A stretch of 64,000 nt of DNA from Candidatus Omnitrophota bacterium (GCA_015494465.1 WGBD01000001.1:116477-180476), one strand, 5' to 3'. Shown: positions 41,138-57,536, counted from the stretch's first letter. The notes: generated by a model not told the origin, from the letters alone. Numbers and translations: made by a program.

Positions 41138-41870
41138 ATTCCTAGGATTAGGGACTCTGAGGTACTCATCTAACGACTCGCTGTCTAGGGGGTGGAGGGC
41201 GATAAAGAGCTTGACCCCGGATCAGTGGATCGAAGAGCTCCCACGAGTATTTTCCCTATCACTATCGTTATCGCAAACCTATCTCGTATTAGTAAACGAA
41301 GAGGTACTAGGGGCTATTACTCCAACCCAACTTATCGAATTAAAAGGGAATCTTCCTTTGACCAGGGGCTACCTAATACTGCCTTCTCCGGCTAGGGAAA
41401 TCCGCGTATATACCACCCAAGAAAAGGCCACCATATACCGGCTCGCCAATCCCTACACCTACATAAAAGAGGTATCACCAAAATTCCGGGAAGGAGAAAT
41501 TGAGATGCCATTGGCGTCTATCGCCCTAACCCAGGGCGATAGATATACAGCTATATCCGTTGAGCGGTTTTTGACCTACAAACATACCTCGGCCTACGAG
41601 GTCTTTGCTAAGCACCTCGTCTACCCCTATCCTAAAACCTTCATTAAAGAACTGACAAGAACCCTGCAATTTATACCTCGGCACACCAATCTATGGGTAA
41701 TAATAACCGAGGGGTTGTTCGAAATCATGACCGATGAGGAGATGGAATCGATCTACTCGTTGTTGTCAGGAGCAAACTGCCCACACCAGATAATAACGAT
41801 GCCTTATCTGATAGACCTGGAATTTTTCCCAGAAATCAATTTATACACTATCCTATTAATAGGGACATGA
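41112..41870 (+). CDS. hypothetical protein
   Basis: 252 aa ORF with no motifs; overlaps the upstream gene end and abuts the histidine kinase. Confidence 0.4.
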   Translation: MQGMGSQNEFLGLGTLRYSSNDSLSRGWRAIKSLTPDQWIEELPRVFSLSLSLSQTYLVLVNEEVLGAITPTQLIELKGNLPLTRGYLILPSPAREIRVYTTQEKATIYRLANPYTYIKEVSPKFREGEIEMPLASIALTQGDRYTAISVERFLTYKHTSAYEVFAKHLVYPYPKTFIKELTRTLQFIPRHTNLWVIITEGLFEIMTDEEMESIYSLLSGANCPHQIITMPYLIDLEFFPEINLYTILLIGT

Positions 41871-43324
41871 ACTGGGACATCTTTATAGTCATATTATTGG
41901 GCCTATGCGTAGTAACCGCCCTTTTTCTCCTCTATAGGCTATTAACTAAAGGGGCTGATCTCTACAACCTCCCTCCCAAGGCCGAGGAACTTATAAAGGA
42001 AAACGCCTATCTTAGGCTGAAGATAGCACATCTGCGCAAAGAGAAGGAGATGCTGGAGGACATCAACCGGGCCTTAACAAACCTAGCCCCCGTCTTCTCT
42101 TGGGATCAGTTGAAGCTCAACCTCAAAAAGGCAAACCTCCCTTCTCTAGGTATTACCAAATCCGCCCTCTATACGCGCACCTCCGATATCCTGGAGATCG
42201 TATACGAGGAGAATCTGGATGCTGAAGCACTGGATTCCTTAAAGACCGGGATAGACCTCACCGCCAAGGTCATGGAAGTCAACCCCAAAAGGCCCATCGT
42301 CGATAGCAACACCCTCTTTCTCAAAGACCCACAGCTCACATCACGCATAAAGAACACGCTATCCGCCACCTTCTTCTGCTTTTACTACATCTACCACGAA
42401 GAGATCCCATCTGCCGTGCTGGTCTGTGCCACAGACCAGGCATGCGACCCGGGCAGATTTACCGCGTTGGTCCAATTCATAGGGCAGCACCTAGTGCACA
42501 TCACGAACATCATCAATATATACCAGGACCTAATCAAAAAACAACAAGACCTAGAGATGACCATAAAGAACCGCACCCAGGAACTCCAAGAGGCTATAGA
42601 CAAGATCTCTCAGATAAATCGATCTAAATCCGAATTCGTCTCTACGGTAGCCCACGAATTGAGGACTTCCCTAACCGCTATATTGGGTTTCGCAACCCTA
42701 ATATACGACGGCAAATTGGGCGAGATCCCCCCAAATGTGAAGGATAGGATCAATCGCATACGCAACCAGGTAAAACGGCTCGTCGAGATGGTCAACACAC
42801 TTCTGGACATCAACCGTATCGAATCGGGCAAGGTAGAGATGCACCCCGAGCCTCTGGATGCCAAGACCCTCCTAACCACCACCGCTGATGTATTTGCCCA
42901 ACAGCTAAACGAGAAAGGGATAGAGCTTGGGATAGAGTGTCCTGAAGGGATCGTGATAGAAGCTGACAGGATATACATGGAACGGGTGATACACAATCTA
43001 GTGAGCAATGCGATCAAGTTCACCCCATCTGGAGGAAGAATCGAGCTTATCTGCAAAGAACTAGGAGACGATAGGATAGAGCTAATAGTGAAAGACACTG
43101 GGGTGGGGATCTCTGAGAGAGATCTTCCCAATATCTTCAAAGAATTTTATTCGGTAGATAGGCCCGATGTCACCAAGATAAGAGGCATAGGTCTCGGGTT
43201 GTCTTTGGTAAAGAGGGTAATCGATGCCCACGACGGAGAGATCTATGTGAAATCGAAACTTAACGAAGGAACCACATTTATAATACACTTAAAGGGTAAA
43301 AAGCAGGAGGCAAGAGATGTATAG
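41867..43324 (+). CDS. sensor histidine kinase
   Basis: N-terminal TM, coiled-coil, H-box VAHELRTSLTAILGF, and HATPase_c N/G boxes (NLVSNAIKF, DTGVGI, GIGLGLSL). Confidence 0.8.
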   Translation: MNWDIFIVILLGLCVVTALFLLYRLLTKGADLYNLPPKAEELIKENAYLRLKIAHLRKEKEMLEDINRALTNLAPVFSWDQLKLNLKKANLPSLGITKSALYTRTSDILEIVYEENLDAEALDSLKTGIDLTAKVMEVNPKRPIVDSNTLFLKDPQLTSRIKNTLSATFFCFYYIYHEEIPSAVLVCATDQACDPGRFTALVQFIGQHLVHITNIINIYQDLIKKQQDLEMTIKNRTQELQEAIDKISQINRSKSEFVSTVAHELRTSLTAILGFATLIYDGKLGEIPPNVKDRINRIRNQVKRLVEMVNTLLDINRIESGKVEMHPEPLDAKTLLTTTADVFAQQLNEKGIELGIECPEGIVIEADRIYMERVIHNLVSNAIKFTPSGGRIELICKELGDDRIELIVKDTGVGISERDLPNIFKEFYSVDRPDVTKIRGIGLGLSLVKRVIDAHDGEIYVKSKLNEGTTFIIHLKGKKQEARDV

Positions 43325-44240
43325 GATCCTCTCTTGTGACGACGATCCCGACATCTTGGACGTAATAGAGATAACCTTTGCCAGCGAAGGCTTTGATGTT
43401 ATCACTGCCTCTGATGGCAAGTCGGGATGGGATATCATCCAAAAGGAACACATAGATGTGGTCATCTTAGACTACATGATGCCAGGACTAAACGGCATCG
43501 AGCTGTGCAAACGCATCAAAAGCGACCCCTTGCTGTCTCAGATCCCGGTGCTATTGGTCACAGGGAAAGGCGAAACCGAGGACAGGTTACTGGGATTGGA
43601 ATCCGGAGCGGACGACTACATAGTCAAGCCTTTCGAACCTCAAGAACTAGTAGCCAGGGTGAGAAACCTACTGAATCGAACCCGCCTTATATTGGACACC
43701 AACCCATTGACCAGACTCCCAGGGAACAACGCTATCACCCAGGAAATAAACAAAAAACTACATAGCCAAGAGCCATTCGCGGTAGCCTACATAGATCTAA
43801 ACCAATTTAAAGCATATAACGACAAGTACGGATTTACTGCTGGCGACGAGATAATACAGTTCACTGCCAAGATCCTCCTCACGACGAGCCGAGAGATAGA
43901 TCCCAATGCCTTCGTAGGGCACATCGGGGGAGACGACTTCGTTATCATATCTTCTCCCGAGAAGATAGAACAGATAGCCCAAAAGGTAATCGAAAGGTTC
44001 GACTCAGAGATAAAAAACTTCTACGATCCCGAGGCAAGAGAAAAAGGATACATCGAGACCTTGGGAAGGGATAGAGTACTAAGGCGCTTCCCCATAATGT
44101 CCGTTTCCATATCCATAGCAGACAGCCAACGCAGGAAGTTTACCCATGTAGGAGAGATCGCCCAGGTGGCGGCAGAACTCAAGAAAAAGGTAAAGACCTT
44201 CGGCAAGAGCGCTTATATGATCGACAGGCGCAGTGGATAA
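43317..44240 (+). CDS. response regulator receiver fused to a GGDEF domain (variant GGDDF motif)
   Basis: REC domain (DDDPDIL...VVILDYMMPG...KPF), then a GGDEF-fold region (PLTRLPGNNAI...GHIGGDDFVII). Confidence 0.75.
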   Translation: MYRILSCDDDPDILDVIEITFASEGFDVITASDGKSGWDIIQKEHIDVVILDYMMPGLNGIELCKRIKSDPLLSQIPVLLVTGKGETEDRLLGLESGADDYIVKPFEPQELVARVRNLLNRTRLILDTNPLTRLPGNNAITQEINKKLHSQEPFAVAYIDLNQFKAYNDKYGFTAGDEIIQFTAKILLTTSREIDPNAFVGHIGGDDFVIISSPEKIEQIAQKVIERFDSEIKNFYDPEAREKGYIETLGRDRVLRRFPIMSVSISIADSQRRKFTHVGEIAQVAAELKKKVKTFGKSAYMIDRRSG

Positions 44241-44244
44241 TCAC

Positions 44245-44326
44245 TGCCGGGAGTGGGATTTGAACCCACACGGGTTGCCCCACACGCCCCTCAAACGTGC
44301 GCGTCTGCCAATTCCGCCATCCCGGC
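44245..44326 (-). tRNA. tRNA-Leu (anticodon GAG), type II
   Basis: Reverse complement GCCGGGATGGCGGAATTGGCAGACGCGCACGTTTGAGGGGCGTG...GTGGGTTCAAATCCCACTCCCGGCA. Anticodon stem is CACGU/GCGUG with loop UUGAGGG; CCA is not encoded. Confidence 0.75.
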
Positions 44327-44336
44327 TTGGTAAAAA

Positions 44337-44410
44337 TGGGCGGTAGAGGACTCGAACCTCTGACCTTCTGTACGTCAAACAGACGCTCTAACCAACTGAG
44401 CTAACCGCCC
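44337..44410 (-). tRNA. tRNA-Val (anticodon GAC)
   Basis: Reverse complement GGGCGGTTAGCTCAGTTGGTTAGAGCGTCTGTTTGACGTACAGAAGGTCAGAGGTTCGAGTCCTCTACCGCCCA. Confidence 0.85.
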
Positions 44411-44460
44411 AACTCTATAAGTTATACTAGAACCCAGGCTCTAAAGTCAAGGCGTAAAAA

Positions 44461-45921
44461 TCACCCTTTGATCACACCCAAAGGTCGCATCCTGGCTACC
44501 TTTTTAGAGAGCCCCGCGACCTCAGCCACTTCTACCACCATGGACACATCCTTGTACGCCTCCGGAGCCTCCTCTACCAGGGTGCGCTTGCTGTGAGAGT
44601 ACACCTTAATCCCCCTATCCTCCAACTCCTTCAACAACCTGCTATAAGAGATCTCCTTAGTGGCCTGGTTCCGCGACTTGCACCTCCCCGCCCCGTGGCA
44701 GGTGGATCCCAACGACCTATCTAGGCTCTCTTTCCTGCCTACCAACAGATAGGAACTCCGCCCCATATCCCCTGGTATGAGCACTGGCTGGCCCACTTCA
44801 CGATAGCGCTCTGGGACTTCTTGTCTTTCAGGTCCAAAGGAACGAGTGGCTCCTTTTCGGTGGACGCAAAGCGTACGCCACTTACCGTCTACATGATGGC
44901 GCTCCAACTTGGCGATGTTGTGGGCGACATCGTATATCAGATCCAATCCCAACGAGCGCCAGGCCCCACCAAAAACCACCTCGAAGGCCTCCCTCACCAT
45001 GTGGGTGATCATCTGTCGGTTCGCCCAGGCGTAATTGGCTGCGCAACACATTGCCCTCCAATATCTTTGCCCTTCCTCTGAATAGAACGGTGCGCAGACC
45101 AGCTGTCTATCGGGAACACTTATCCCGTACTTGCTCATCGCAGAAAGCATTATCTTCACGAAGTCCGAACATATCTGGTGCCCCAATCCCCGTGATCCGC
45201 AATGGATCATAACGGTTATCTGCCCCTTAAATACCCCAAAGGCCTGGGCTACCGCCTCGTCGTACACCTCCTCTACCACCTGGATCTCAAGGAAGTGGTT
45301 CCCTGATCCCAGACTGCCCAACTGAGGGACCCCTCGTTCGTATGCCCTTCGCGAGACCTCTTCGGGGTCTGCATCCGGCATACATCCCCCTTCTTCACAG
45401 TGCACGAGGTCCGCCTCTTCCCCCATACCATGGGTAACCAGCCACCGACTCCCCTGGGAAAGGACCCGTTTCAGCTCCTTCTTGGATAGTGATAACCCGC
45501 CATCTCTGCCTAATCCTGCGGGGATCCTTGCGTACAATCTCGAAAGTAGCTGATCTAGTCGGGGCAGAACCTCATCCAGCTCCAGGTTCGAGCGTATCAA
45601 CCTGACACCGCAGTTTATGTCAAAGCCCACCCCTCCAGGGGAGATCACTCCCCTTTTGTCCACATCCATTCCCGCAACTCCCCCTATAGGGAACCCGTAA
45701 CCCCAATGGATGTCCGGCATGCCAAAAGAGTAGGCCACGATCCCCGGCAGGTGGGCCACATTAGCCACTTGGGTGATGGCCTCTGGCTCTACGAAATTCT
45801 CCAAGAGCTCTTCATCGGCGAATATCATGCCGTCCACCAGCATTCCGCCAGTACGGGGGATCTTCACCCGCACATCGTCTATTCTAATCAGAGCTAGATC
45901 CGCCATCTTCCCCTCCGACAT
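44461..45921 (-). CDS. rtcB: RtcB-family RNA 3'-phosphate ligase
   Basis: 486 aa with conserved His/Cys metal ligands (DINCGVR, GSGNHF, HNIA, CHGAGR). Confidence 0.85.
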   Translation of the reverse strand: MSEGKMADLALIRIDDVRVKIPRTGGMLVDGMIFADEELLENFVEPEAITQVANVAHLPGIVAYSFGMPDIHWGYGFPIGGVAGMDVDKRGVISPGGVGFDINCGVRLIRSNLELDEVLPRLDQLLSRLYARIPAGLGRDGGLSLSKKELKRVLSQGSRWLVTHGMGEEADLVHCEEGGCMPDADPEEVSRRAYERGVPQLGSLGSGNHFLEIQVVEEVYDEAVAQAFGVFKGQITVMIHCGSRGLGHQICSDFVKIMLSAMSKYGISVPDRQLVCAPFYSEEGQRYWRAMCCAANYAWANRQMITHMVREAFEVVFGGAWRSLGLDLIYDVAHNIAKLERHHVDGKWRTLCVHRKGATRSFGPERQEVPERYREVGQPVLIPGDMGRSSYLLVGRKESLDRSLGSTCHGAGRCKSRNQATKEISYSRLLKELEDRGIKVYSHSKRTLVEEAPEAYKDVSMVVEVAEVAGLSKKVARMRPLGVIKG

Positions 45922-47878
45922 TCCTGATCACCACGAAGGTGATGTCGTCGCTCTGGGGCTGATCCCCATAGAAGGACTGCATCAGCTTGTCTATAGAACA
46001 AACAGGTGCGTTTATGTTGGAAATCACCCACTCCTTGACCCTTTCTTCCGAGATAAACCTCTCCCCCACCCTTGCCTCTAACACCCCATCGCTGAAGAGG
46101 ATAATACTATCGCCTCTACTCCAGGCCACATCCAAGGCCTGGTACTCGGTCCACCTATCGACCCCCAACGGAGCCCCCTTTCCTGCAATGATCTCCTCTA
46201 GAGTCCCAGCTTCTGCCCGCCACATCCAGGCCGAGAGGTGTCCAGCATCGCTAATGACCACTTTATCCCTGGAGGCCTCTATCATGCAAGCGGTCGCGTA
46301 CACGCCAGATATCTTATACCTTGCCAAGAACCTATTGACCTCCTCCATCAGCTCGTTCACCGGGCGTTCGTTAAACCTGGGCCTGAGGACGCGTTCAGAG
46401 GTGATCACCTGGGCCACATATAGCGCGGCGCTCACGCCCTTACCCGAGACATCCCCCATAAGCACGCGCAATCTATCCTTTACCAACCAAACATCGTAAA
46501 AGTCACCCGCGACGAAGATCGCGGGAGAGAAAAAGACCTCCGTCTTTACCGTCTCACTCTGAGGGATGTCAGTAGGCAACATCTGCCGTTGGATCTCCGA
46601 AGCCACCCGCATCTCCTGCTCCACGCGCTCCCTTTCTCTCACCGTATCTATGTAGCCGTAAGCACTGCTGGCCAATACCATACAGAACCCCCCTAACAAC
46701 GGGCCTAAGTAATCAAACCACATCCCCGACCAGACGAACAATCCCAAGGCCGCTCCAACCCAAATTAGCGCAAGGATAAGGTAATTCCTCCAGAAGATCC
46801 CTAAATGCCTTACCCGCATTATGGAGACCAGACCGAACAACAGGAATACCAACGCCGGAAGCACGACCGGCATCCGTCTAATAAACCTATCCTTAAGGAC
46901 CGAGGCAAACACTACCCCGTAGGTCTCGATCATCGGCGTAGTGCGCTCTATTGGAGTGGGAGATAGGTCCTGAGTACCGGTAGCGGTCAAGCCCACTATG
47001 CAGGAAGAGCCCTTTATGAGCTCCACCATCCTCTTCTCTTCCTCGCTGAGCGGTATACCCCTCTGCTGTTTCCCGTAAGCGATCAACACACTCGCAAACG
47101 ATACCTTGTTAAAGACCTTCTCCCACGGACCAGGGTAATCCAGATAAAACCTATCGTCGCGATACAAAGGTATGTCCCTTGCAATGGTCCCTTGCTTGGG
47201 CCTTATGCGGACAAACCGAATCCGGTTAGGGAAGTTGATCACCTCGCTGGGGCGCACATCCAAGAAGTACAGGACATTTACCAGACTCAGGTGATAAAGA
47301 TACTCCTTTTTGAACACACCCACCTTAAGGTGCCTCAGCTTCAGGTATCGCCTCTTTCCATCTATGTCCACGGTGGTGGTTATGTACCCCGTGTGAAGCA
47401 ATCGATCTCTCGGGAGGACATTCTTAAAAAGGGTATATATGTCCACGACCCTGCTATAGCCCCGGGGGTCCACGGTCAAGGAATAGGGCAACAAGACATC
47501 CTTAAAGGCAGAGATGGCCCTAGCAAATTGATAATCCTGGTTGGAATTGGGATCTGGATCCCGATCGCTCGGCTCCGAAAAGAGCATATCGAAGGCCACC
47601 TGCTTGGCTCCCCAGCTCTTCAAGGCGGTTAGTAAAAAGGCATAGTACTTTCTCGGCAGAGGAAACGATCGGAACCCTTTAGTAGCCAGCGTCTTATCAT
47701 CGATAACTATCAGAACCAACGGGAGCTCGTGCGTATCTATCGGATTAAGGTGCGTCCGCAAATTAAGTGCTAGGTCGTAACCGACCAATTCCAAGCGTTC
47801 CAGTGCACGAAAGGATATAAGGCTGACGAACAAGAGAAGGATCGAGATCAATACGAGATAGCGGGATAGGGACTTCAT
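45884..47878 (-). CDS. CHASE2 extracytoplasmic sensor fused to a PP2C/SpoIIE-type serine phosphatase
   Basis: N-terminal signal/TM then a CHASE2-like periplasmic domain with trailing TM helices. C-terminal PPM phosphatase: FVAGDFYDV...LMGDVSGKGVSAAL. Confidence 0.7.
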   Translation of the reverse strand: MKSLSRYLVLISILLLFVSLISFRALERLELVGYDLALNLRTHLNPIDTHELPLVLIVIDDKTLATKGFRSFPLPRKYYAFLLTALKSWGAKQVAFDMLFSEPSDRDPDPNSNQDYQFARAISAFKDVLLPYSLTVDPRGYSRVVDIYTLFKNVLPRDRLLHTGYITTTVDIDGKRRYLKLRHLKVGVFKKEYLYHLSLVNVLYFLDVRPSEVINFPNRIRFVRIRPKQGTIARDIPLYRDDRFYLDYPGPWEKVFNKVSFASVLIAYGKQQRGIPLSEEEKRMVELIKGSSCIVGLTATGTQDLSPTPIERTTPMIETYGVVFASVLKDRFIRRMPVVLPALVFLLFGLVSIMRVRHLGIFWRNYLILALIWVGAALGLFVWSGMWFDYLGPLLGGFCMVLASSAYGYIDTVRERERVEQEMRVASEIQRQMLPTDIPQSETVKTEVFFSPAIFVAGDFYDVWLVKDRLRVLMGDVSGKGVSAALYVAQVITSERVLRPRFNERPVNELMEEVNRFLARYKISGVYATACMIEASRDKVVISDAGHLSAWMWRAEAGTLEEIIAGKGAPLGVDRWTEYQALDVAWSRGDSIILFSDGVLEARVGERFISEERVKEWVISNINAPVCSIDKLMQSFYGDQPQSDDITFVVIRNVGGEDGGSSSD

Positions 47879-48597
47879 CTAAATCGCTTTTTCATCGTTA
47901 CCTGGGATCCACCACGGGAAAAAGAGACCTCGTCCATAATGGACTTCACTAACCTTAGTCCTTTGCCCTCCGTCGTCTCAAAATCGAAGCCTTCACCTTC
48001 GTCTCTTACCTTTATCTCTATCTGCCCTGGATCGGCGATGTATTCTATCAACACGAACTTGTCCGACGAGAACTGATTTCCATGGCGTATCGCATTGACG
48101 ACCACCTCCTCCACCGCCAACCGCAGGTCCATCAGGATAGACTCCGACAGGTGGAATCTCTGGAGCACGGATATGATCCGTCGACTCACATCTTGCACAT
48201 ATTCCAAGTCACTGGGTATCTCTATCTTTCCTTCCTGGACGACTGCCTCATCCTGAGAGGAGGTCAAAAGATCGTCCAGGGCCTCGTATATCTCAAAGGC
48301 CTTGTCGAGGTGAGTCAAGGACAGCAACCTCTTAGCGTAATCGGAAAGCCCCACCAATATTAGCTTACCACCCCGCTTGGCCATCCTATCCTTCAGTTCT
48401 AACAACAATCCCAGACCAGAGCTGTCGAGGTAGCCTACTTTCGACAACTCTAGGACCAGGCAACTCACATCCCTTTCCCTGTCCAGGGCCTCCAGAATCG
48501 AGGATAACACCACGACCTTCTCTTTGGCTACTAACTCACCCTCCAAGTAGAATATCAACTTATCCTCTACCCTCTCTTCCCGAAACTTTATAGCCAT
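47875..48597 (-). CDS. fused anti-sigma-factor antagonist (STAS) and anti-sigma-factor serine kinase (RsbW/SpoIIAB-like HATPase)
   Basis: N-terminal STAS (VLELSKVGYLDSSGLGLLLEL). C-terminal GHKL kinase (EEVVVNAIRHGN...VRDEGEGFD...GKGLRLVKS). It lies immediately downstream of the PP2C gene. Confidence 0.7.
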   Translation of the reverse strand: MAIKFREERVEDKLIFYLEGELVAKEKVVVLSSILEALDRERDVSCLVLELSKVGYLDSSGLGLLLELKDRMAKRGGKLILVGLSDYAKRLLSLTHLDKAFEIYEALDDLLTSSQDEAVVQEGKIEIPSDLEYVQDVSRRIISVLQRFHLSESILMDLRLAVEEVVVNAIRHGNQFSSDKFVLIEYIADPGQIEIKVRDEGEGFDFETTEGKGLRLVKSIMDEVSFSRGGSQVTMKKRFR

Positions 48598-48598
48598 G

Positions 48599-49507
48599 TC
48601 AGACGACCTCCAACATCCTGTCTATAGACCTCTTTGCCTTGGAGATGATCTTCTCAGGCAACCTCACCTCGTACTTCTCTTCCAAAAGGGCCTCGTAAAG
48701 GCGTTCAAGCGTGGTCTCTTTCATTGTACGACAAACCGCCCTATCAGAGACAGGAATAAATTCCTTCTCCGGCAATTCTTTCTTTAAGCGGTACACCATT
48801 TCCCTTTCGGTAGCAACGATAAAGCGTCTCGCATCTGAGCGTTGCGCCCACTTGATCATGCCCGAGGTGGAGGCAATCGCATCCGCTAACTCCAACACCT
48901 CAGGAGGGCACTCGGGGTGAGCTATCACCTCCGCATCTGGGAACACCCGCTTTTTCTCCAGCACATCCTTGGGGTGGATCTCCTCGTGGACATAACAATA
49001 CCCTTTATCCCATATAACCATATTCTCCCGTTGGGTCTGCTTCTGGACATACATTCCTAGATTCCTATCGGGAAGAAAGACCACCGTTTTATTAGGGTCT
49101 ATTGCCTTTACCACCCGAACCGCATTCGCAGAGGTACAGCAAATATCCACTTCAGCCTTTATCTCTGCACTGGTATTGACATAGGCCACGAATTCCGCAC
49201 CTGGATACCGCTCACGCAATTGCCTTACATCCTCTACGGAGATGGTGTCTGCAAGAAAACAGCCAGCCCAAAGCGAAGGGATCAATACCTTGGCCTGGGG
49301 GGAAAGGACCTTAGCGGTCTCTGCCATGAACACCACCCCACAGAAGACTATAAGATCTGCGGATCTCTCCTTGGCTATCCTGCTCAATTCCAGAGAATCT
49401 CCCACCACATCTGCTAGATCCTGGATCTCTGGGAGCTGATAGTTGTGGGCCAAGATCAGGGCATTCTTTTCCTGCTTAAGCCTCAATATCTCTTTCTTTA
49501 GGTTCAT
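48599..49507 (-). CDS. nadA: quinolinate synthase
   Basis: LAHNYQ...conserved Cys ligands; 302 aa type NadA. Confidence 0.85.
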   Translation of the reverse strand: MNLKKEILRLKQEKNALILAHNYQLPEIQDLADVVGDSLELSRIAKERSADLIVFCGVVFMAETAKVLSPQAKVLIPSLWAGCFLADTISVEDVRQLRERYPGAEFVAYVNTSAEIKAEVDICCTSANAVRVVKAIDPNKTVVFLPDRNLGMYVQKQTQRENMVIWDKGYCYVHEEIHPKDVLEKKRVFPDAEVIAHPECPPEVLELADAIASTSGMIKWAQRSDARRFIVATEREMVYRLKKELPEKEFIPVSDRAVCRTMKETTLERLYEALLEEKYEVRLPEKIISKAKRSIDRMLEVV

Positions 49508-49510
49508 GGA

Positions 49511-50545
49511 CTACTCCCAAGGATAGGAGACCGATTCGATCTCACCACCAGCGACTATCTTATCCCCCTTGTAAATCACTACGTGCTGACCGGGGGCAAC
49601 ACCCAATTGCTTTTCTACAAACACCACCTCAAAACGATCCCCTTCTCTCACGACGCGAACCGGTACATCGGGTTGATTATACCTGATTTTGGCACTGGCC
49701 TCAAACTCCGATCTCTCCTCTAGATAAACACCTAATCTAGCGGTCAGTCTGCTGGCCATGGCCTCCTCTCTCTTGGCCACCACCACGGTCCTACTTTCCG
49801 GAACTATCCTTACCACATACCACGGACCTGGTTCCTTCAAAGAAAGACCCGACCGCTGTCCAGGCGTGTACATGAAGTATCCTCGGTGCTCTCCAAGCAC
49901 TCGACCTCGTATGTCCACAATCTTACCCGAAAAGTCCTTATCTCGCTCCAGCCCTGCCATGAGAAAGGCCTTATAATCCTTATCCCCGACGAAGCACAAA
50001 TCCTGACTTTCTCCCGAGGGCTTCAACCAAGGCACCCTCCCTCCGACATACCTTCTCACCCAGCCCTTATCCTTATCCCCTAACGGAAACAGGACATCGG
50101 AAAGTCCCGTAGGGATCAAGCGGTAAAGGAAGTAGCTCTGATCTTTTTTGAGATCCACACCCTTTGCTATAGTAGGCCTGCCCTCGTATTCTCCGATTCG
50201 GGCGTAATGTCCGGTAGCCACTGCGTCGAAGCCCAACTCCTCCTTTAGTCTCCTCAACCAATAGAACTTGAAGTCGACATTGCAGTTCACGCAGGGATTC
50301 GGGGTAAGTCCACTCAGATAGTAGTCCTTAAAACCGGCAACCACCCCACGATCGAAGGGCTCTTGCAAGGTATACACGGTAATGGGGATAAAAAAATACT
50401 GAGCTATCTTTTCAACGCGCTCTCTAACTGGACTGTTAAAACCGGTATCTAGGAAACAGGCATGAACCGTATGGCCCTGCTCCAACAGGAGGGCCACTAC
50501 TGCACAGGAGTCAATCCCCCCGCTCAGGCCCACTACCACCCTCAT
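49511..50545 (-). CDS. mnmA: tRNA-specific 2-thiouridylase
   Basis: [22 protein letters not shown]-loop; 344 aa. Confidence 0.85.
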
Positions 50546-51200
50546 ACTTGGTCAACCTGTGTTCAAGTTCTTCAATCCTCTTTTCGAGACGGTTTTGCTC
50601 CTTCATGAGCACCCGTATCACATCCGCTATAGGATCGGGTAACCTCCCGTGCTCCAGATCGATCTCTATCTGCTTTCGGCTACTGCGAATCTCCTGTACG
50701 ATCCTCCCCGGCACACCTACTACCGTCGCCCCCGGAGGGACATCTTTTATTACCACAGAACCCGATCCTATCTTCGCCCCTTCCCCAATCGTGATGTTGC
50801 CCAGGACTATCGCCCCAGCACCAATGACCACCCTATCCTTTACGGTGGGATGGCGCTTCGTCTTCTCCTTGCTCGTTCCGCCCAACACGACACCTTGGTA
50901 TATCAGGACATCGTCACCCACCTCCGCAGTCTCACCTATTACCACCCCCATCCCGTGGTCTATAAAGACCCGTCTCCCCAACTTGGCTCCAGGATGGATC
51001 TCTATACCGGTGAGGAATCGATTAATGTGGGACAGAAATCTGGCCAGGAACTTGAACCCGTGATTCCACAGCCAGTGTGCTATCCTGTGCATCCATATGG
51101 CGTGTAGCCCAGGGTAGCAAAACAGGACCTCTAATACACTACGGGCAGCGGGATCGTCGCGAAAGACGGTCTCGATGTCCTCGCGCAATCTACGGAACAT
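50511..51200 (-). CDS. cysE: serine O-acetyltransferase, with a charged C-terminal coiled-coil-like tail
   Basis: SAT N-terminal helical domain, then hexapeptide repeats ([41 protein letters not shown]). Confidence 0.8.
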
Positions 51201-51203
51201 GGA

Positions 51204-51491
51204 TCAGATGGCCACCACCTGTTTTATCCCAGGCACCATGTTCTTGAGGGACTGCTCTACGCCCATCTTGAGGGTCATGACCGAGAAGGGACAGGCACCA
51301 CAGGCTCCCAACAGTCTTACCTTCACCGTACCCTCGTCGTCCAGTTCCAGGAACTCTATATCTCCACCATCCATCTGGAGCGCTGGACGGATCTCTTTCT
51401 CTATGATCTCTTTCACCTTCTGTTCCAACTCTTCCCGATTAAGCTCTCTCTCCATCTTTTCCCTCCTTGACGCTGGCTTATCAGACATCAC
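51204..51491 (-). CDS. NifU-like (Nfu) Fe-S cluster scaffold domain protein
   Basis: ALQMDGGDIEFL...GACGACPFS (CxxC) Nfu C-terminal domain. Confidence 0.7.
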   Translation of the reverse strand: MMSDKPASRREKMERELNREELEQKVKEIIEKEIRPALQMDGGDIEFLELDDEGTVKVRLLGACGACPFSVMTLKMGVEQSLKNMVPGIKQVVAI

Positions 51492-51512
51492 CTTAACATA
51501 TTAGCACCTATC

Positions 51513-52226
51513 TCATAAGTTTCCAATCACCTCTTTCTGCTTGGCCAAGAGATCCTCGATCCCCTTTTGGGCTAGATCCAACAGCTCATCAAGGACCGAC
51601 CTGGTAAACCCCCCTCTCTCACCCGTCCCCTGCACCTCTATAAACTCCCTACCTTCAAATGCGACGACATTCATGTCTACTGTTGCCTGAGAATCCTCAG
51701 AGTACTCCAGATCCAATAGGAGCTGGCCCTCTACGACCCCAACGCTGATAGCGCTAACCACTCCTCGGAAGGTAAACTCTACAGGGTGACCTAACTGCCT
51801 TTCCAGGGCCTTAAGACACATGTATAAGGCGATCACTCCCCCGTTTATCCCCGCGGTGCGGGTACCACCATCGGCCTGTAAGACGTCCACATCGACATAT
51901 ATGGTCCTTTCTCCTATGTGTTCCAGGTCCACGCAGGCCCGTAGGCTCCGCCCTATCAACCTCTGGATCTCGAATGTCCTACCCGAGCCTGCAGACTTCT
52001 CCCTAGGGAGCCTGCCCAGCGTAGAGCCGGGCAACATCCTGTACTCGCAGGTCAACCACCCATTGCCCGTTCCTTTCAGAAAGTTGGGCACATCGTCGAT
52101 CCAGGTAGCGGTACACAATACCCGTGTCTTGCCCATACGGAACAAACAGGACCCCGGGGGATTGTCTAACCAGCCCGGGATAATCTCAACAGGTCGGACC
52201 TCATTCCAAGACCTGTCTACTCGCAT
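51513..52226 (-). CDS. rph: ribonuclease PH
   Basis: GSCLFRMGKTRVLCTA...LQADGGTRTA RNase PH signature; 237 aa. Confidence 0.85.
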   Translation of the reverse strand: MRVDRSWNEVRPVEIIPGWLDNPPGSCLFRMGKTRVLCTATWIDDVPNFLKGTGNGWLTCEYRMLPGSTLGRLPREKSAGSGRTFEIQRLIGRSLRACVDLEHIGERTIYVDVDVLQADGGTRTAGINGGVIALYMCLKALERQLGHPVEFTFRGVVSAISVGVVEGQLLLDLEYSEDSQATVDMNVVAFEGREFIEVQGTGERGGFTRSVLDELLDLAQKGIEDLLAKQKEVIGNL

Positions 52227-53110
52227 CTCTTCCCCTCCAGCTTTCGGCCGTAACCTGCCAGAAACTCCACGATCCCCATCCTCCGTTTACCTGCCGGCTG
52301 TACCTCCACCGGTAAGATCGCCCTATCGGCTGTACCTATCATCAATCCCTTTTTATCCACTACCACCTCACCCGGGGCCAGTCTTTGTTCGGCGATCTCT
52401 GCCCACCATATCTTCAGCTCTATCTCACCAATGATCGTCCATGCCCCCCAATAAGGTGAACCCGCCCTCACGAGGTTGTACACCCCTTCTGCAGGGGAAT
52501 TCCAATCTATCCTCAAAAGATCCCGATCAACCTTCCTGGCGTAAGAAGGCTCTCCCTCCTGCGGTCGATCCGTCGGCAAATCAGATCGAGAAAACACCTC
52601 GAGCAAGGCAGAGACAGCCTTCTCCGCCAAGGCCCTCTCCAAGTCTGCGTAAGACCATTGGATGGGAACCGAGACCTGCTCCTGGCGAACGATCCTGCCG
52701 GTGTCTATCCCCTCGTCCATCCAGAAGAGGCTAACACCGCTTTCCTTATCCCCGCTGCGGATGGTCCAAAAGATAGGCGCAGGGCCTCTCCACCTGGGGA
52801 GAAGGGAGGGATGCAAGTTAAGACAACGCCGTGTCCTTACTAGGTTTGGGGGGAAGATGAAACCTATGTCGCAGGCCACTATAAGGCCCTCCTCTTCAAG
52901 TAATACTCCTTCCGCGTCGATCCCGTCCAATTCCAGGACATCCAAGCGGTGCTCTAAACAGACCCGTTTTACCGGCAGGGGGCCTAGCCCCCCTCTAGGC
53001 AGCCTTCTATCGCCTAGGGTGTAGACGCGAGAGGGAGCCCTCCCACGCTCTAATATCCCCTGCAACACCCGGGCGCCAAACCTACCGCTGGAACAATACA
53101 CCCATCTCAC
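52217..53110 (-). CDS. fmt: methionyl-tRNA formyltransferase
   Basis: Formyl-transferase N-domain (NLHPSLLPRWRGPAPI) and Fmt C-terminal domain. Confidence 0.7.
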   Translation of the reverse strand: MRWVYCSSGRFGARVLQGILERGRAPSRVYTLGDRRLPRGGLGPLPVKRVCLEHRLDVLELDGIDAEGVLLEEEGLIVACDIGFIFPPNLVRTRRCLNLHPSLLPRWRGPAPIFWTIRSGDKESGVSLFWMDEGIDTGRIVRQEQVSVPIQWSYADLERALAEKAVSALLEVFSRSDLPTDRPQEGEPSYARKVDRDLLRIDWNSPAEGVYNLVRAGSPYWGAWTIIGEIELKIWWAEIAEQRLAPGEVVVDKKGLMIGTADRAILPVEVQPAGKRRMGIVEFLAGYGRKLEGKRCE

Positions 53111-54282
53111 AGCTGTGTCTCCCTCAATACCTCCTCCAGCGTAGTGAGTCCCATCTTCACCTTTCGCAGGCCATCTTCCCTCAACGAGACCATCCCCAGT
53201 TCCTTGGCCCTGCGGAACAACCCTTCTGTGGAGATCCTATCCAGAATAAGCGGATGCAGCTCCGTGCTTACCCCCAGAAATTCGAATATACCGATCCTGC
53301 CTCGATACCCGCTACCTCCACAGGCCTCACAGCCTACCCCTTTGAAGAACCGGCCCTCTCTGAGCTCGTCCTCATCAAGACCAAAGGCATCTATCTCCGC
53401 CTGGGTTGGTTCGTATACCTCTATGCATTGAGGACAAATCCTCCTTACCAATCTCTGGGCGATCACCGCCCTAAGGGTAGCAGTGATAAGGTACGGCTCT
53501 ATCCCCATGTCGATCAAGCGAGTAATCGCGCCGGGTGCGTTGTTGGTGTGCAGAGTAGAAAAGACCAGGTGTCCGGTCAGGGCGGAATGGATGGATATCT
53601 CCGCGGTCTCTCTGTCCCTTATCTCCCCTACCATTATTACATCTGGATCCTGACGCAATATCGTGCGCAATATCACTGCAAAGTCCAGTCCTATCTTGGG
53701 ATTTATCGGCACCTGAACCACACCTGGAAGATCGTATTCAATGGGGTCCTCTACGGTGATCAACTTCCTGTGTATCTGATTCAACTCCCTAAGGAAGGCG
53801 TACAAGGTCGTGGTCTTACCGCTCCCCGTAGGTCCGGTCACCAAGATCATGCCGTTGGTGAACTCGAGCAGGGACTGGTACAGGTGTATGTCCTCTTCCC
53901 AGATCCCAAGCTCCCCTAACTGTATGTCTATGTTGCCCTTATCCAATATCCGCAGTACCACGCTCTCACCAGTAACCGTGGGAAGGGTGGAGACCCTAAA
54001 GTCCACATCCTTACCGTTAATACGCATCCTTATTCGCCCATCCTGAGGGACACGATTCTCTGCCACATCCAAGCCTGCCAAGACCTTTATACGGGAAACG
54101 ATAGGGGAAAACAGCTCTTCCGGGGGGCTTGCTAGATCCCTCACGACGCCATCCACCCTTGCCCTTACCTTGAATCCTTCCGGAAAGACCTCGAAGTGGA
54201 CATCACTGGCCTTGAGCTCTACCGCCTCTGACAGGATAGCGTCCAACAACTGGACGACGGGTGCAGAAGCCCCTGCGCTCAT
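53107..54282 (-). CDS. GspE/PilB-family type II/IV secretion ATPase (short form with C-terminal tetracysteine Zn motif)
   Basis: Walker A GPTGSGKTT, Asp box, Walker B, His box; CPQC...CEACGGSGY. Confidence 0.75.
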   Translation of the reverse strand: MSAGASAPVVQLLDAILSEAVELKASDVHFEVFPEGFKVRARVDGVVRDLASPPEELFSPIVSRIKVLAGLDVAENRVPQDGRIRMRINGKDVDFRVSTLPTVTGESVVLRILDKGNIDIQLGELGIWEEDIHLYQSLLEFTNGMILVTGPTGSGKTTTLYAFLRELNQIHRKLITVEDPIEYDLPGVVQVPINPKIGLDFAVILRTILRQDPDVIMVGEIRDRETAEISIHSALTGHLVFSTLHTNNAPGAITRLIDMGIEPYLITATLRAVIAQRLVRRICPQCIEVYEPTQAEIDAFGLDEDELREGRFFKGVGCEACGGSGYRGRIGIFEFLGVSTELHPLILDRISTEGLFRRAKELGMVSLREDGLRKVKMGLTTLEEVLRETQL

Positions 54283-55322
54283 TGCACCTCTACGGGGTTC
54301 TCCTGGGTATAGTTGATAGCGGTTATCGGATACGGGATAACGATACCCTCGTCCTTGTACCTCTTGTGCAGGCGTTTTATGAATTCGTGAGTGATCAGAT
54401 ATCTATCCACGAAGGTCTTGCCCCGCAGGATCACCGTAAAGTTGATGCTAAAGTCCCCAAAGGTGTGATAGCGGATGAACGGATCGAACTCGGGCACCCC
54501 GCCAGGTACGGTCTGCATAACCTCCTTGGCCACCTCACAGGTAATCTTTTCGACCTTCTCCAGGTCACTGTTGTAATGCACGCCAACCTGCACCAACACC
54601 GCCAGATCACTGGAAGGCAACTCGTAATTTATGACCTTTGCCTGAGCAAGTTTGGAGTTGGGCACCAAGACCATGTTGTTGGGCAATTGTCGGATCTTGG
54701 TTACTCGCCAGCCTATGTCCTCTACGTATCCCTCTTCCCCGGAATCCAGCTTGATGTAGTCACCTACCTTTATGTGGTTATCCAAAGTAATGTACATCCC
54801 CGCAAAGAGATTCGACAGGGTATCCTGCAGGGCCAAGGCAACGGCCAAACCACCTATACCCAATGTGGTCAGCAACGGAGTAATGGAGATCCCGAGGTGA
54901 TTGAGGGCTATCAACACGCCCAGAAGGATGATAGTAAGCTTTACCACATTGGCAAACAACGAGCTTTTAGCGAAGAACTTATTTTCTTGACGATAATAGG
55001 CAAAGAGCCTATCCACTATGTTCACCAGTCCCCAGAAGAGCGAACCGATGAACAACACATACAATATCCTCTGCCCCAATTCTACTTGATTTGGTTTTAG
55101 CCCTATAAATGCCAAGGCAAAGGCAAGACCCCCAAGGATAAACCACAGGACAATCCAGCGTTTTATCTCCTCAAAGACCACATCGTCCCACACCGTTTTG
55201 GTCTTACCCACGAGCTTAAGCACGCGATTCACCACGATCCGCTTCACGATCATCCCTAATATCCACGAGAAGACCACGATGCCTGAAGACACGAGCATGT
55301 TTATCATCACCGCTTTATTCAT
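54279..55322 (-). CDS. MscS-family mechanosensitive channel
   Basis: Three TM helices with the pore helix GIGGLAVALALQDTLSNLFAG, followed by a beta-domain. Confidence 0.8.
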   Translation of the reverse strand: MNKAVMINMLVSSGIVVFSWILGMIVKRIVVNRVLKLVGKTKTVWDDVVFEEIKRWIVLWFILGGLAFALAFIGLKPNQVELGQRILYVLFIGSLFWGLVNIVDRLFAYYRQENKFFAKSSLFANVVKLTIILLGVLIALNHLGISITPLLTTLGIGGLAVALALQDTLSNLFAGMYITLDNHIKVGDYIKLDSGEEGYVEDIGWRVTKIRQLPNNMVLVPNSKLAQAKVINYELPSSDLAVLVQVGVHYNSDLEKVEKITCEVAKEVMQTVPGGVPEFDPFIRYHTFGDFSINFTVILRGKTFVDRYLITHEFIKRLHKRYKDEGIVIPYPITAINYTQENPVEVQ

Positions 55323-55998
55323 TCTCGGCTACCTCCCATTCAGCCACCCATCCCTCTGGTAACACCACTCCCCCTGAGACGACGGCCTGCAAGGCAGACT
55401 CTACACTTACATCCAAAGCGATAACTTCGTCCTTTCTCACGAACTCCAGGAATCCCGTCAAAGGACTAGGGGAAGTAGGGACGAACACCGCAACGAAAAC
55501 CTCACCCTCTTTCGACGGCAGATGGACCCCGTCAGAGCTCAAGAAAGCGATAGAATACATGCCCTTTCGGGGGTATTCTATCAAGACGACCCTGCCCCAC
55601 TTCTTCTCCTGCTGTTGGAAAAAGTACTGAGCAATCCTTTTTAGAGAGGAATATATCCTGCCCACCAAAGGCAGGCGTTCTACCCAATGCTCGAAAAAGG
55701 CCATTATGCGCCGGGCGAGGAAGTTCTGGACCAGCAGACCCACGAAAAAGATCAACACCAAAGACAAAACTATACTCAACCCCGGGACCTCAAAGCCCAG
55801 TGCCAGACGGACCAACGAGTTGAGGTACCTACCTATAGCCACATCGATGAGCTTAAATATCAGACCGATAACATATATAGTCAACACTACCGGCGTAACG
55901 ACCGCCAATCCTGAGATAAAGTACCTTCGCCAGCGACTCATCCACATAACCCGATTTACCTCTCCTTTAGCAATTGCTTTACCCAATCGAGTTCCCAA
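55315..55998 (-). CDS. DUF502-family membrane protein
   Basis: Two N-terminal TM helices plus the conserved DUF502 core; the true start is probably the internal MSRWRRYF. Confidence 0.55.
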   Translation of the reverse strand: MGTRLGKAIAKGEVNRVMWMSRWRRYFISGLAVVTPVVLTIYVIGLIFKLIDVAIGRYLNSLVRLALGFEVPGLSIVLSLVLIFFVGLLVQNFLARRIMAFFEHWVERLPLVGRIYSSLKRIAQYFFQQQEKKWGRVVLIEYPRKGMYSIAFLSSDGVHLPSKEGEVFVAVFVPTSPSPLTGFLEFVRKDEVIALDVSVESALQAVVSGGVVLPEGWVAEWEVAENE

Positions 55999-57536
55999 TC
56001 GTATATCCCGTTCTTCTTCAAGACCTTGCTCACGTAACCGTCGGTTATAGCGTCCAGATCCGACCTCAACCGCTGTATCCTATAAAGCAGATCGAGTAGT
56101 TTTGCTACATCCTTTGGCGGAGACAACACCAAACGGGTCTGGAGCTTTCGCCTCTCGAAGTAAGTCTGATTGACCTGATCAAGGATGTCATCTCTCAATT
56201 CTACCGTAAGTTTGGACCTGGTATCAATCGAGATCTCCTCTTTGGACCAGACCAACTCTTTGAGATCCCACTCCAGCGATATCCCAAAGTCCCCTGAAGA
56301 GTAAACCGTCTTATCGTCTGGACCGACATTTGAGTTGCCGTAAGAAGATACCGCAACCGAATCGGAAACTGACCTACTACCACTCAGATCCACATCCAAA
56401 GACACCTTGGGTAAAAGCGCTCTTTTCCTAACCGCCTCTCGCCAGGCAATTATCTTCTCAGGGCTGACCTCTGCTACCTGCATAGCAACTTCTTGGATCT
56501 CGTCTATTGCCGGTTCCTGCGCAAACATCCTCCACAAGAAGAGCATCCTATCCCCGTTAGGCGAGGCAGGAGACACCGTCTGAATGCGCCTTACATACAA
56601 TCGACGCGAGCTACACACCAAGGCATAGGACCCCCTAAAGTCTCCGGAATAGATGTCTAGATCCTCCAGGCCCTGGTCATCTGACTCTCCCGAATAGACC
56701 AAGAAAACACCTTCGTTTCCGTAGGCTATCGCCTCCTCGGGGAAAAGCAGCCCCCTAAGTTCACCAGGATAATCAAAGACCTTTTTACTGCCTTCCTTCT
56801 CATCGACCATCCACACCGCTTTACCCCTAGCGAACAAGACCTTCCGTTGGTCCCAGATGACCTGATTCCCCTTGTAGGGGACTGTCTCCGAATCCGGTAT
56901 CCAACTTTCCTCGTACACCGGCTCCCAACTTCCAAGATCTACGACGATTATGCGATCCTTTGTCAATACAGCTAGGCGATCTCCAGAAGAAGAGACTTCC
57001 AGATCAAGCACACCCCTAGCAGTGAAGACCCGATCCCAGTGGGATCCATCTGTCGAGCGGTATACCCCCTCTTTTGTCCCTATCAATAGGGAACCTCTGC
57101 CCCCGCCGACGCAGGTGACGAGCTTTCCCGGTGGAGAGAACACCCTCTTTGCCCTCTTCTTCTCCTGCCCCAGCTCCACCACGAATAATCCCAAAGAAGA
57201 GGCCCAATACAGCCTGCCCCTCCACACCAACGCATCGTACACCCCTAGATCTTCTCCTCCCCTCAACCTGCACAGCCTAAAGGCACCGGAATCCCGTAGG
57301 CACCAAACATAGTTCTTATCAAACAGATAAGCCTCCCCCCCAGGGCCCAAACGCACTAACCTAATGGGAGTACCATTCCAAGGAAGAGGTAGCCAATCAC
57401 CGAGGAGAACCGAGGCAAAGGAGAGGAAAAGGATCAGAGACAATCCTAATCTTCCCACGCTAACCTGTCCCCCACTTCTAAGCCCCAACGCGAGGCACTT
57501 CCACCCGCTACCTCCAACACATAAGAGGCCGACCAC
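55956..57536 (-). CDS. hypothetical exported protein with BNR/Ycf48-like beta-propeller repeats
   Basis: N-terminal hydrophobic segment; repeated motifs resembling Asp-box/BNR (VYRSTDGSHWDRV); 526 aa. Confidence 0.4.
   Translation of the reverse strand: MVGLLCVGGSGWKCLALGLRSGGQVSVGRLGLSLILFLSFASVLLGDWLPLPWNGTPIRLVRLGPGGEAYLFDKNYVWCLRDSGAFRLCRLRGGEDLGVYDALVWRGRLYWASSLGLFVVELGQEKKRAKRVFSPPGKLVTCVGGGRGSLLIGTKEGVYRSTDGSHWDRVFTARGVLDLEVSSSGDRLAVLTKDRIIVVDLGSWEPVYEESWIPDSETVPYKGNQVIWDQRKVLFARGKAVWMVDEKEGSKKVFDYPGELRGLLFPEEAIAYGNEGVFLVYSGESDDQGLEDLDIYSGDFRGSYALVCSSRRLYVRRIQTVSPASPNGDRMLFLWRMFAQEPAIDEIQEVAMQVAEVSPEKIIAWREAVRKRALLPKVSLDVDLSGSRSVSDSVAVSSYGNSNVGPDDKTVYSSGDFGISLEWDLKELVWSKEEISIDTRSKLTVELRDDILDQVNQTYFERRKLQTRLVLSPPKDVAKLLDLLYRIQRLRSDLDAITDGYVSKVLKKNGIYDWELDWVKQLLKER

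Follow-up and report, generated by a model that had tools for sequence, protein, structure and literature searches.

What does a partner switch control, and how is it set, when its antagonist and its kinase form a single polypeptide and no sigma factor gene lies beside them? The question is raised by two genes in a 64,000-nt stretch of DNA (hereafter the window) of a Candidatus Omnitrophota bacterium (GCA_015494465.1 WGBD01000001.1:116477-180476). The first gene encodes a 240-aa protein, in which a STAS domain is fused to an RsbW/SpoIIAB-type serine kinase domain of the GHKL (Bergerat-fold) family, and the second a 664-aa membrane protein, in which a CHASE2 sensor domain is followed by a PP2C phosphatase domain of the SpoIIE/RsbU type. 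We favour, with moderate confidence, the reading that the two proteins together run a phospho-switch centred on one residue of the STAS domain, Ser59. How a partner switch behaves is set by the relative amounts of antagonist, kinase and target, and this module is a natural version in which antagonist and kinase are welded together at 1:1. As a two-protein system with a minimal ATP lid and a phosphatase bearing a periplasmic sensor, it also provides a simple case for the distinction between cis and trans phosphorylation and for the role of the lid. The locus adds a signalling module to the scant knowledge of regulation in uncultivated Omnitrophota-like bacteria.

The fused antagonist-kinase and its membrane phosphatase

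Both open reading frames (ORFs) that a preliminary description of this DNA had reported are present on the minus strand (Table 1); their order, given there as phosphatase and then fusion, is the reverse. Transcription runs in the order nadA, STAS-kinase, CHASE2-PP2C, rtcB. The ATG of the fusion gene lies 1 nt beyond the nadA stop codon, and the gene ends in a 4-bp overlap (ATGA) of its stop codon with the start of the phosphatase gene, which translationally couples the two genes. The fusion and CHASE2-PP2C genes are adjacent in all four orthologous loci examined (the window, L003, L004 and L013), and the order NifU-CysE-MnmA-NadA-[fusion]-[CHASE2-PP2C] is kept in L003, L004 and L013. For six clusters of fusion proteins, the matching phosphatase was found on an equally long contig, taken to be the same contig.

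The N-terminal half of the fusion protein matches the STAS family PF01740 with 65.5 bits (cut-off 22.6) and the NCBIfam model of anti-sigma factor antagonists, TIGR00377, with 65.2 bits (cut-off 53.45). An AlphaFold2 model of the whole chain was built from an alignment of 28 fusion proteins with the STAS domain first and the kinase second (alignment A1). It has a pLDDT (predicted local distance difference test) of 89.7 and a predicted template modelling score (pTM) of 0.76, the latter value suggesting, for a chain of two domains, a defined interdomain packing. In Foldseek comparisons, the STAS half of the model superposes on SpoIIAA (1TH8_B; TM-score 0.90, root-mean-square deviation (rmsd) 1.3 Å), to which it also aligns in sequence, and on TM1442 (1VC1; TM-score 0.91), i.e. 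the fold is that of a STAS domain. The predicted phospho-acceptor, which the preliminary description had proposed to locate, is Ser59 of the motif YLDSSGLG; it aligns with the serine of FMDSSGLG in SpoIIAA, i.e. with Ser58, the residue phosphorylated in that protein. Conservation of Ser59 among the 28 fusion proteins of alignment A1 is at least 90%.

The C-terminal half covers the full HATPase_c_2 profile (PF13581, positions 1-127) with 81.2 bits (cut-off 27.4), and the corresponding part of the model superposes on SpoIIAB (1TH8_A) with a TM-score of 0.84 and an rmsd of 1.8 Å (Foldseek). All of its nucleotide-binding boxes are present. Residues E164, N168 and H172 of the N box, G201 of the G1 box and G213 of the G2 box are invariant in alignment A1, while D199, G203 and G211 are conserved in at least 90% of its sequences. 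The residues of the three boxes are kept in 10 of 10 orthologous clusters (65-97% identity) and in the more distant orthologue of L013, which shares 44% identity in the STAS half. Both domain assignments of the preliminary description, STAS and RsbW-type kinase, thus hold.

Its reading of the 664-aa protein as a CHASE2 sensor, transmembrane segments and a SpoIIE/RsbU-type PP2C domain also proved correct. The CHASE2 domain (PF05226) scores 112.5 bits (cut-off 26.3) and is framed by four membrane helices, one on its N-terminal and three on its C-terminal side, the fourth being weaker by hydropathy. In the AlphaFold2 model of the phosphatase (pLDDT 90.3) the helices span residues 2-22, 339-353, 359-384 and 391-433, and the last one runs unbroken towards the catalytic domain, which starts at residue 444. 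The SpoIIE profile (PF07228) matches residues 468-652 with 103.4 bits (cut-off 25). The PPM motifs GDFYD458, GDVSGKG475, SDG596 and DDIT644 are present, and the metal-binding residues D459, D476, D597, D644 and D645 do not vary among 32 homologues. The closest PP2C folds were the RsbU domain of Rv1364c (3KE6; the best match), then RssB, SiaA (also a weak NCBIfam match) and SpoIIE; as judged from the model, the nearest folds are those of phosphatases of partner-switching or STAS-type pathways. The CHASE2-SpoIIE architecture is common, with at least 57 clusters, and all members with a named source belong to Candidatus Omnitrophota/Omnitrophica; one protein, P0291, is a phosphatase 100% identical to that of the window. 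A literature search found no paper combining CHASE2 with PP2C, SpoIIE or RsbU.

Table 1. Positions of the genes, domains and motifs of the module, of its neighbours and of the Mla-linked relatives (window coordinates unless a locus is named).
Feature	Position	Strand	Evidence
STAS and RsbW-type kinase fusion gene	47875..48597	minus	ORF, 240 aa; Pfam STAS, HATPase_c_2
STAS domain, residues 9-109	48271..48573	minus	PF01740 E 4.3e-18; TIGR00377; Foldseek
Ser59 codon AGC, predicted phospho-acceptor in DSSG	48421..48423	minus	alignment to SpoIIAA, codon read
Interdomain linker, residues 114-120	48238..48258	minus	AlphaFold2 helix end / strand start
RsbW/SpoIIAB-type GHKL (Bergerat-fold) Ser kinase / anti-sigma domain, residues 127-237	47887..48219	minus	PF13581 E 8.7e-23
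N box E164-x3-N168-x3-H172 (EEVVVNAIRH)	48082..48108	minus	alignment A1; aligns with SEAVTNAIIHG of SpoIIAB
G1 box D199-E-G-E-G203, 7-residue lid FDFETTE, G2 box G211-K-G213-L	47959..48003	minus	alignment A1, spacing count
ATGA overlap, fusion stop and phosphatase start codon	47875..47878	minus	sequence read, ORF coordinates
CHASE2 / transmembrane / PP2C phosphatase gene	45884..47878	minus	ORF, 664 aa; Pfam CHASE2, SpoIIE
Extracytoplasmic CHASE2 sensor domain, residues 14-349, preceded by TM1 (~2-22)	46832..47839	minus	PF05226 E 3.3e-32, hydropathy, AlphaFold2
Three C-terminal membrane helices, residues 339-353, 359-384, 391-~411, with TM4 helix extended to 433	46580..46864	minus	hydropathy, AlphaFold2
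PP2C (PPM, SpoIIE/RsbU-type) domain, residues 444-653	45920..46549	minus	PF07228 E 1.9e-29, motifs, fold matches
nadA, conserved upstream neighbour	48599..49507	minus	Pfam NadA E 5.8e-122
rtcB, downstream same-strand neighbour	44461..45921	minus	Pfam RtcB E 8.3e-177
Mla-linked cluster	L011:3130-9902; L012:2034-9914

The predicted Ser59 switch and its short ATP lid

In the switch that we infer for this pair, the GHKL domain of the fusion would phosphorylate, with ATP, Ser59 of its own N-terminal STAS domain, either within one chain or across a dimer formed by strand beta1 and helix alpha1 of the kinase. The CHASE2 domain of the membrane protein would sense an extracytoplasmic or envelope cue, and the signal would pass through TM4 and the continuous helix 391-433 to the cytoplasmic PP2C domain, which would take the phosphate off Ser59. 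Transmission of sensor signals into RsbU-type PPM domains by helical or coiled-coil linkers has been proposed as a general mechanism (PMC12143880). The unphosphorylated STAS domain would dock on the kinase domain and cover its partner-binding face; the phosphorylated STAS domain would be released, and the kinase domain would then be free to hold a partner. The fusion would fix the antagonist:kinase ratio at 1:1 and keep the local concentration of the antagonist high, so that the state of the switch would depend on the balance of kinase and phosphatase alone.

An experimental precedent for a fused kinase acting on its own antagonist domain is provided by Rv1364c of M. tuberculosis, in which a PAS domain, a PP2C phosphatase, an RsbW-type kinase and a STAS domain form one chain. 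As summarised in PMC10950880, Rv1364c both adds a phosphate to Ser600 of its own STAS domain and removes it again. In addition to the structural likeness of the phosphatase domains mentioned above, the kinase domain of Rv1364c is among the weak sequence matches of the window fusion. The window module is, however, not of this all-in-one type: its fusion has the STAS domain before the kinase, whereas the order in Rv1364c is kinase and then STAS, its phosphatase is a separate membrane protein, and its sensor is a periplasmic CHASE2 domain instead of a cytoplasmic PAS domain. Moreover, Rv1364c is linked to SigF in mycobacteria, while the window has no sigma factor nearby.

Several observations weigh against the Ser59 switch as outlined: (i) the linker is only about 7 residues long, which puts in question whether Ser59 can reach the active site of its own chain; (ii) the spacing between the G1 and G2 boxes is 7 residues in the clade of the window, compared with a modal value of 19 in 186 related kinase domains, and alignments to RsbW and SpoIIAB end after the G1 box because the lid is shortened, which makes kinase competence not certain; (iii) the RsbW/SpoIIAB equivalog models NF003144, TIGR01924 and TIGR01925 score 43.8, 42.6 and 37.4 bits, respectively, against cut-offs of 145, 155 and 135; (iv) no sigma-70-family gene was found among the 49 ORFs of the window in Pfam scans, and no sigma factor within +/-10 kb of three orthologous loci or beside any other fusion examined; and (v) in sister lineages, the homologous module forms part of an Mla transporter operon, a setting that speaks against a sigma factor as the output. 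The first of these points bears on the route of phosphorylation. Since RsbW-type domains dimerise via beta1/alpha1, which here come right after the linker, phosphorylation in trans within a dimer is as possible as phosphorylation in cis.

The second point raises an alternative, in which the short-lid domain is a pseudokinase that serves only as a binding or dimerisation scaffold, and any phosphorylation of Ser59 is the work of another kinase. The reduced spacing and the truncated alignments fit such a scaffold, as does the fact that the lid (residues 201-210, pLDDT 65) is the lowest-confidence part of the fusion model. We nevertheless consider a pseudokinase improbable. The residues E164, N168, H172, D199-x-G-x-G and G211-x-G213 are kept down to 65% identity, and also in L013, which is unexpected for a dead site, and a tightly coupled gene for a dedicated PP2C phosphatase is sensible only if the serine is phosphorylated. 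GHKL kinases with short lids, of the DesK, NarX, VraS and DosT type, are active, and VraS and DosT are among the weak sequence matches of the kinase half. Given that the nucleotide-binding motifs are all conserved and that such short-lid kinases are active, the C-terminal domain is probably an active kinase with altered nucleotide handling. The short lid is common to all orthologues, including that of L013, and to P0063, the closest fusion outside the clade; because a few unrelated proteins (P0069 and P0145) have it as well, it is not strictly tied to the fusion. The preliminary description had mentioned neither this lid nor the link to Mla operons.

In the AlphaFold2 model, the last STAS helix extends to residue 113 and the first kinase strand starts at residue 121, with a mean pLDDT of 65 for the block 111-120. 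The linker is kept among orthologues as protein sequence (Q-E/Q-G-K/R-I/M-E-I-P-S). At window:48226-48246 (minus strand), its DNA consists of the purine-rich stretch CAGGAAGGAAAG, followed by ATA, and in four orthologous clusters (P0005, P0006, P0008 and P0010) the position of this ATA codon is occupied by Met. The region could be the relic start of a formerly separate rsbW gene. A relic ribosome-binding site and start codon in the linker DNA (CAGGAAGGAAAGATA), giving rise to a free kinase, was considered and rejected for the window: the codon is ATA there as well as in L003 and L013, and L013 lacks the purine-rich stretch.

Compared with the RsbU/RsbV/RsbW and SpoIIE/SpoIIAA/SpoIIAB modules of Bacillus, the window module has the same types of components, i.e. 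a PP2C phosphatase, a STAS antagonist with the DSSG motif and a GHKL serine kinase/anti-sigma factor, and the halves of the fusion superpose on the SpoIIAB and SpoIIAA chains of the 1TH8 structure, as described above. It differs from these modules in that antagonist and kinase are one polypeptide with a 7-residue lid, and in that the input of the phosphatase is a membrane CHASE2 domain and not RsbT/stressosome or the divisome. Furthermore, it has no sigma factor gene in the operon or in the 64 kb, and its scores against the RsbW and SpoIIAB equivalogs are far below the cut-offs.

The top whole-chain Foldseek match of the fusion model (E 1.3e-10) was LvrC of Leptospira (PDB 9QIH), composed of a REC domain and an RsbW-like Bergerat domain. 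In LvrC, an N-terminal phospho-acceptor domain of alpha/beta fold is fused to, and controls, an RsbW-type anti-sigma domain that dimerises via beta1/alpha1, and its sigma factor target is not known, as is the case for the window fusion (PMC13269768). In contrast to the STAS domain of the window, which is predicted to be phosphorylated on Ser by the attached domain, the LvrC receiver is phosphorylated on Asp by a histidine kinase, and the relative orientation of the domains differs (rmsd 16-17 Å).

Components of the RsbU/V/W type with no adjacent sigma factor are also found in SypE/SypA of V. fischeri, HsbR/HsbA and SiaABCD of P. aeruginosa and BtrUVW of Bordetella, where the output can be the STAS (or STAS-like) protein itself; as noted, the window PP2C domain has a close structural match in SiaA. 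In these systems, the kinase is fused to a phosphatase or receiver (SypE and HsbR) or the parts are separate, and none of them is known to have a STAS-kinase fusion or a CHASE2 input.

Distribution of the fusion and candidate outputs

The family of the window fusion is narrow, comprising ten clusters of proteins of 237-241 aa (65-97% identity), and the next matches are to stand-alone RsbW proteins with 36-38% identity. A scan of species-representative genomes with the fusion protein gave two distant partial matches only. The fused architecture itself is recurrent and has arisen more than once. A phmmer search of 1.84 billion cluster representatives with the fusion protein returned 8298 matches at E <=1e-3, of which the best 150 (50%-identity clusters) were classed with domain hidden Markov models (HMMs) built from alignment A1. 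The STAS-kinase order of the window was found in 31 of these 150 clusters, the kinase-STAS order in 27, and the kinase alone in 74. The statement of the preliminary description that RsbV and RsbW are normally separate proteins is true for model organisms, but fused forms are frequent. With both fusion orders frequent among the best 150 clusters, rarity is no basis for interest, and the fusion is already captured by routine domain annotation. What distinguishes the window module is a set of traits: the STAS-kinase order, the minimal ATP lid, the CHASE2 phosphatase input, the absence of a nearby sigma factor, and kinship with, or descent from, Mla-linked modules.

Searching with a profile of the fusion alignment revealed at least four further fusions in heterogeneous contexts, including one with an adjacent SpoIIE gene and two orphans. 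The one with the SpoIIE gene, at locus L009, is an unrelated STAS-kinase fusion of 220 aa, and, as in the window, the phosphatase gene comes after it. Two proteins with the kinase-STAS order, P0064 and P0067, are very similar to the Mla-linked pair of kinase and STAS genes described below, which shows that fusion has occurred in both orientations within the group. A literature search found no paper characterising a STAS-kinase fusion in the order seen here.

Relatives also carry unfused STAS and RsbW genes in the same order as in the window fusion, as at L094:3626-4449, and this would agree with a fusion created artificially, by a frameshift or by mis-assembly of separate rsbV and rsbW genes. 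We give this explanation next to no weight. It is effectively refuted by the unbroken ORFs of 237-241 aa in the ten clusters and in L013, which come from independent NCBI, ENA and Logan assemblies, and the linker is kept as protein sequence.

As for the output, a distal sigma factor or another regulator, encoded elsewhere and held by the kinase domain, is a plausible candidate, to which we assign somewhat less than an even chance. The preliminary description had noted that no sigma factor gene is adjacent, and this is true for the whole window: besides the Pfam scans, a phmmer search of its six-frame translation with approximate SigB and RpoE query sequences gave no sigma factor.

Related loci point to another kind of output. 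JGI metagenomes were scanned with a CHASE2-PP2C profile and the full-length matches were annotated with custom HMMs; two loci of Omnitrophota metagenome-assembled genomes were added. In a group of phosphatases of ~30% identity, whose named members are from Candidatus Omnitrophota, the phosphatase gene is the last of a cluster composed of RsbW-type kinase - STAS - MlaE - MlaF (ATP-binding cassette (ABC) ATPase) - MlaD - (FecR-like - X) - CHASE2-PP2C. The cluster is complete in seven loci (L011, L012, L014, L015, L017, L018 and L019) and partial in L016 and L020, where it is broken by contig ends. The lid is normal in the Mla-linked kinases, and the DSSG motif is present in the STAS proteins. 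The STAS gene is located immediately upstream of mlaE, and the operon contains neither a separate MlaB gene nor another STAS gene. This arrangement suggests that phosphorylation regulates an MlaB-like STAS subunit in a lipid ABC transporter. MlaB of MlaFEDB consists of one STAS domain, whose T52 corresponds in position to Ser59. T52 lies in the MlaF interface, and its phosphomimetic replacement T52E weakens MlaF binding (Kolich et al., 2020; PMC7367683). Phosphoregulation of MlaB was left open by the MlaFB structure paper and is yet to be demonstrated (PMC7367683). In a literature search, no connection of Mla with RsbW-type kinases or partner switching was found.

Transferred to the window, this arrangement would make the STAS domain itself the output. 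Unphosphorylated, it would be MlaB-like and would bind or stabilise the MlaF-like ATPase of an MCE/Mla transporter encoded elsewhere, the kinase turning the system off through phosphorylation of Ser59 and the envelope-sensing CHASE2 phosphatase turning it on. Beyond its orthologues, the window STAS domain does have its best BLAST matches among the Mla-linked STAS proteins (L014, 36% identity over 104 aa, E 1e-15), and it shows weak matches to MlaB models and structures. We nevertheless regard this explanation as unlikely. Homologues of MlaE, MlaF, MlaD, the FecR-like protein and X were found neither in the window nor beside the orthologous loci, the shared transcription with Mla genes in the relatives is no proof of direct interaction, and a STAS domain tethered to a dimeric kinase might be hindered from docking on MlaF. 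The HMM scores, too, are those of anti-sigma antagonists (65-95 bits overall and 75-95 bits for the Mla-linked STAS proteins; cut-off 53) and not of MlaB (28-34 bits; cut-off 90). Membership of the Mla-linked STAS proteins in the MlaB family was rejected on these scores, their operon position alone being MlaB-like, and so was an MlaB identity of the window STAS domain, which reaches 29.1 bits with NF033618 (mlaB_1; cut-off 90), is fused to a kinase and has no mla genes in the window. As the clade of the window carries no mla, FecR-like or X genes nearby, the Mla link of its module is a lead and not a finding. An ABC transporter, of the Mla type or another, that is controlled by the STAS domain is a doubtful candidate for the output.

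It is likewise rather improbable that the fusion is a condensed form of an envelope-lipid control circuit widespread in Candidatus Omnitrophota and not a sigma factor regulator. In such a circuit, an RsbW-type kinase and a phosphatase whose CHASE2 domain senses the periplasm would together set the phosphorylation of an MlaB-like STAS regulator of an Mla/MCE ABC transporter. If true, it would be the first partner switch found in nature to phosphoregulate an ABC lipid transporter, and would answer the question left open for MlaFB, with an MlaB-type STAS protein controlled by phosphorylation. The family context may be weightier than the window module itself: the separate kinase and STAS genes on one side and the phosphatase gene on the other bracket mlaE-mlaF-mlaD, and are candidates for MlaB-like phosphoregulation.

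Some Mla-linked loci contain a second STAS gene. L014:2-995 encodes STAS, kinase and STAS, and extra STAS genes lie downstream of the phosphatase gene at L018:13850-14224 (minus strand) and L019:14968-15387 (plus strand). Several STAS proteins at these two-STAS loci have ISS instead of DSSG at the acceptor position, and the sequences hint at branched switches with two antagonists. A similar logic could apply to the window, with the kinase acting in trans on free STAS proteins encoded elsewhere and the fused STAS domain being an autoinhibitory pseudo-substrate, whose dephosphorylation by the CHASE2 phosphatase would stop the kinase. Besides the loci in which a kinase and a phosphatase are accompanied by additional STAS genes, mycobacterial branched systems with several antagonists or RsbW paralogues (PMC10950880) speak for such a decoy. 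Pfam scans and an HMM search of the six-frame translation, however, detected no second STAS or HATPase_c_2 domain in the 64-kb window, and there is no sequence feature that separates a decoy from a Ser59 switch acting within the fusion; we rate the decoy as very unlikely, slightly below the pseudokinase.

Neighbouring genes and other features of the window

The 3' end of the phosphatase ORF shares 38 nt with the rtcB ORF, and rtcB is probably co-transcribed with the phosphatase gene. The rtcB gene is found downstream in L003 and L004; since it is absent in L013, it is not a conserved partner of the unit. In a scan of positions 44000-54500, promoter and terminator sites were not more numerous than in shuffled sequence. 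One of them, a hairpin followed by a T-rich tail, lies where rtcB ends (window:44465-44484, minus strand); not significant by this measure, it may be the terminator of the long minus-strand operon.

Convergent on rtcB is a plus-strand block (window:39068-44240), which begins with ORFs of 689 aa and 252 aa, neither of them matching a Pfam family, and continues with a HisKA/HATPase_c histidine kinase (41867-43324), overlapping a REC-GGDEF response regulator (43317-44240). Elsewhere, window:18933-20087 encodes a GAF-GGDEF protein.

Other genes on the minus strand include (i) two FeoB-type ferrous-iron transporter genes (window:15168-17363 and window:31460-33454), the first of which encodes a FeoA-FeoB-like fusion with a weak G-domain match, and (ii) a gene for a 569-aa PriA-like protein (window:33510-35219), in which only the PriA 3'-DNA-binding and C-terminal domains were matched (E <=1e-3), and no helicase-core family. 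A cluster resembling Tad/type-IV-pilus secretion systems, with unusual fusions, occupies window:53107-63997 (minus strand). It encodes a T2SSE ATPase (53107-54282), a 526-aa ORF with no Pfam match (55956-57536), a 737-aa fusion of a ParA/MinD-like protein and T2SSE (57768-59981), a secretin carrying TonB_C at its C-terminus (59968-61527) and RcpC/CpaB (61524-62813).

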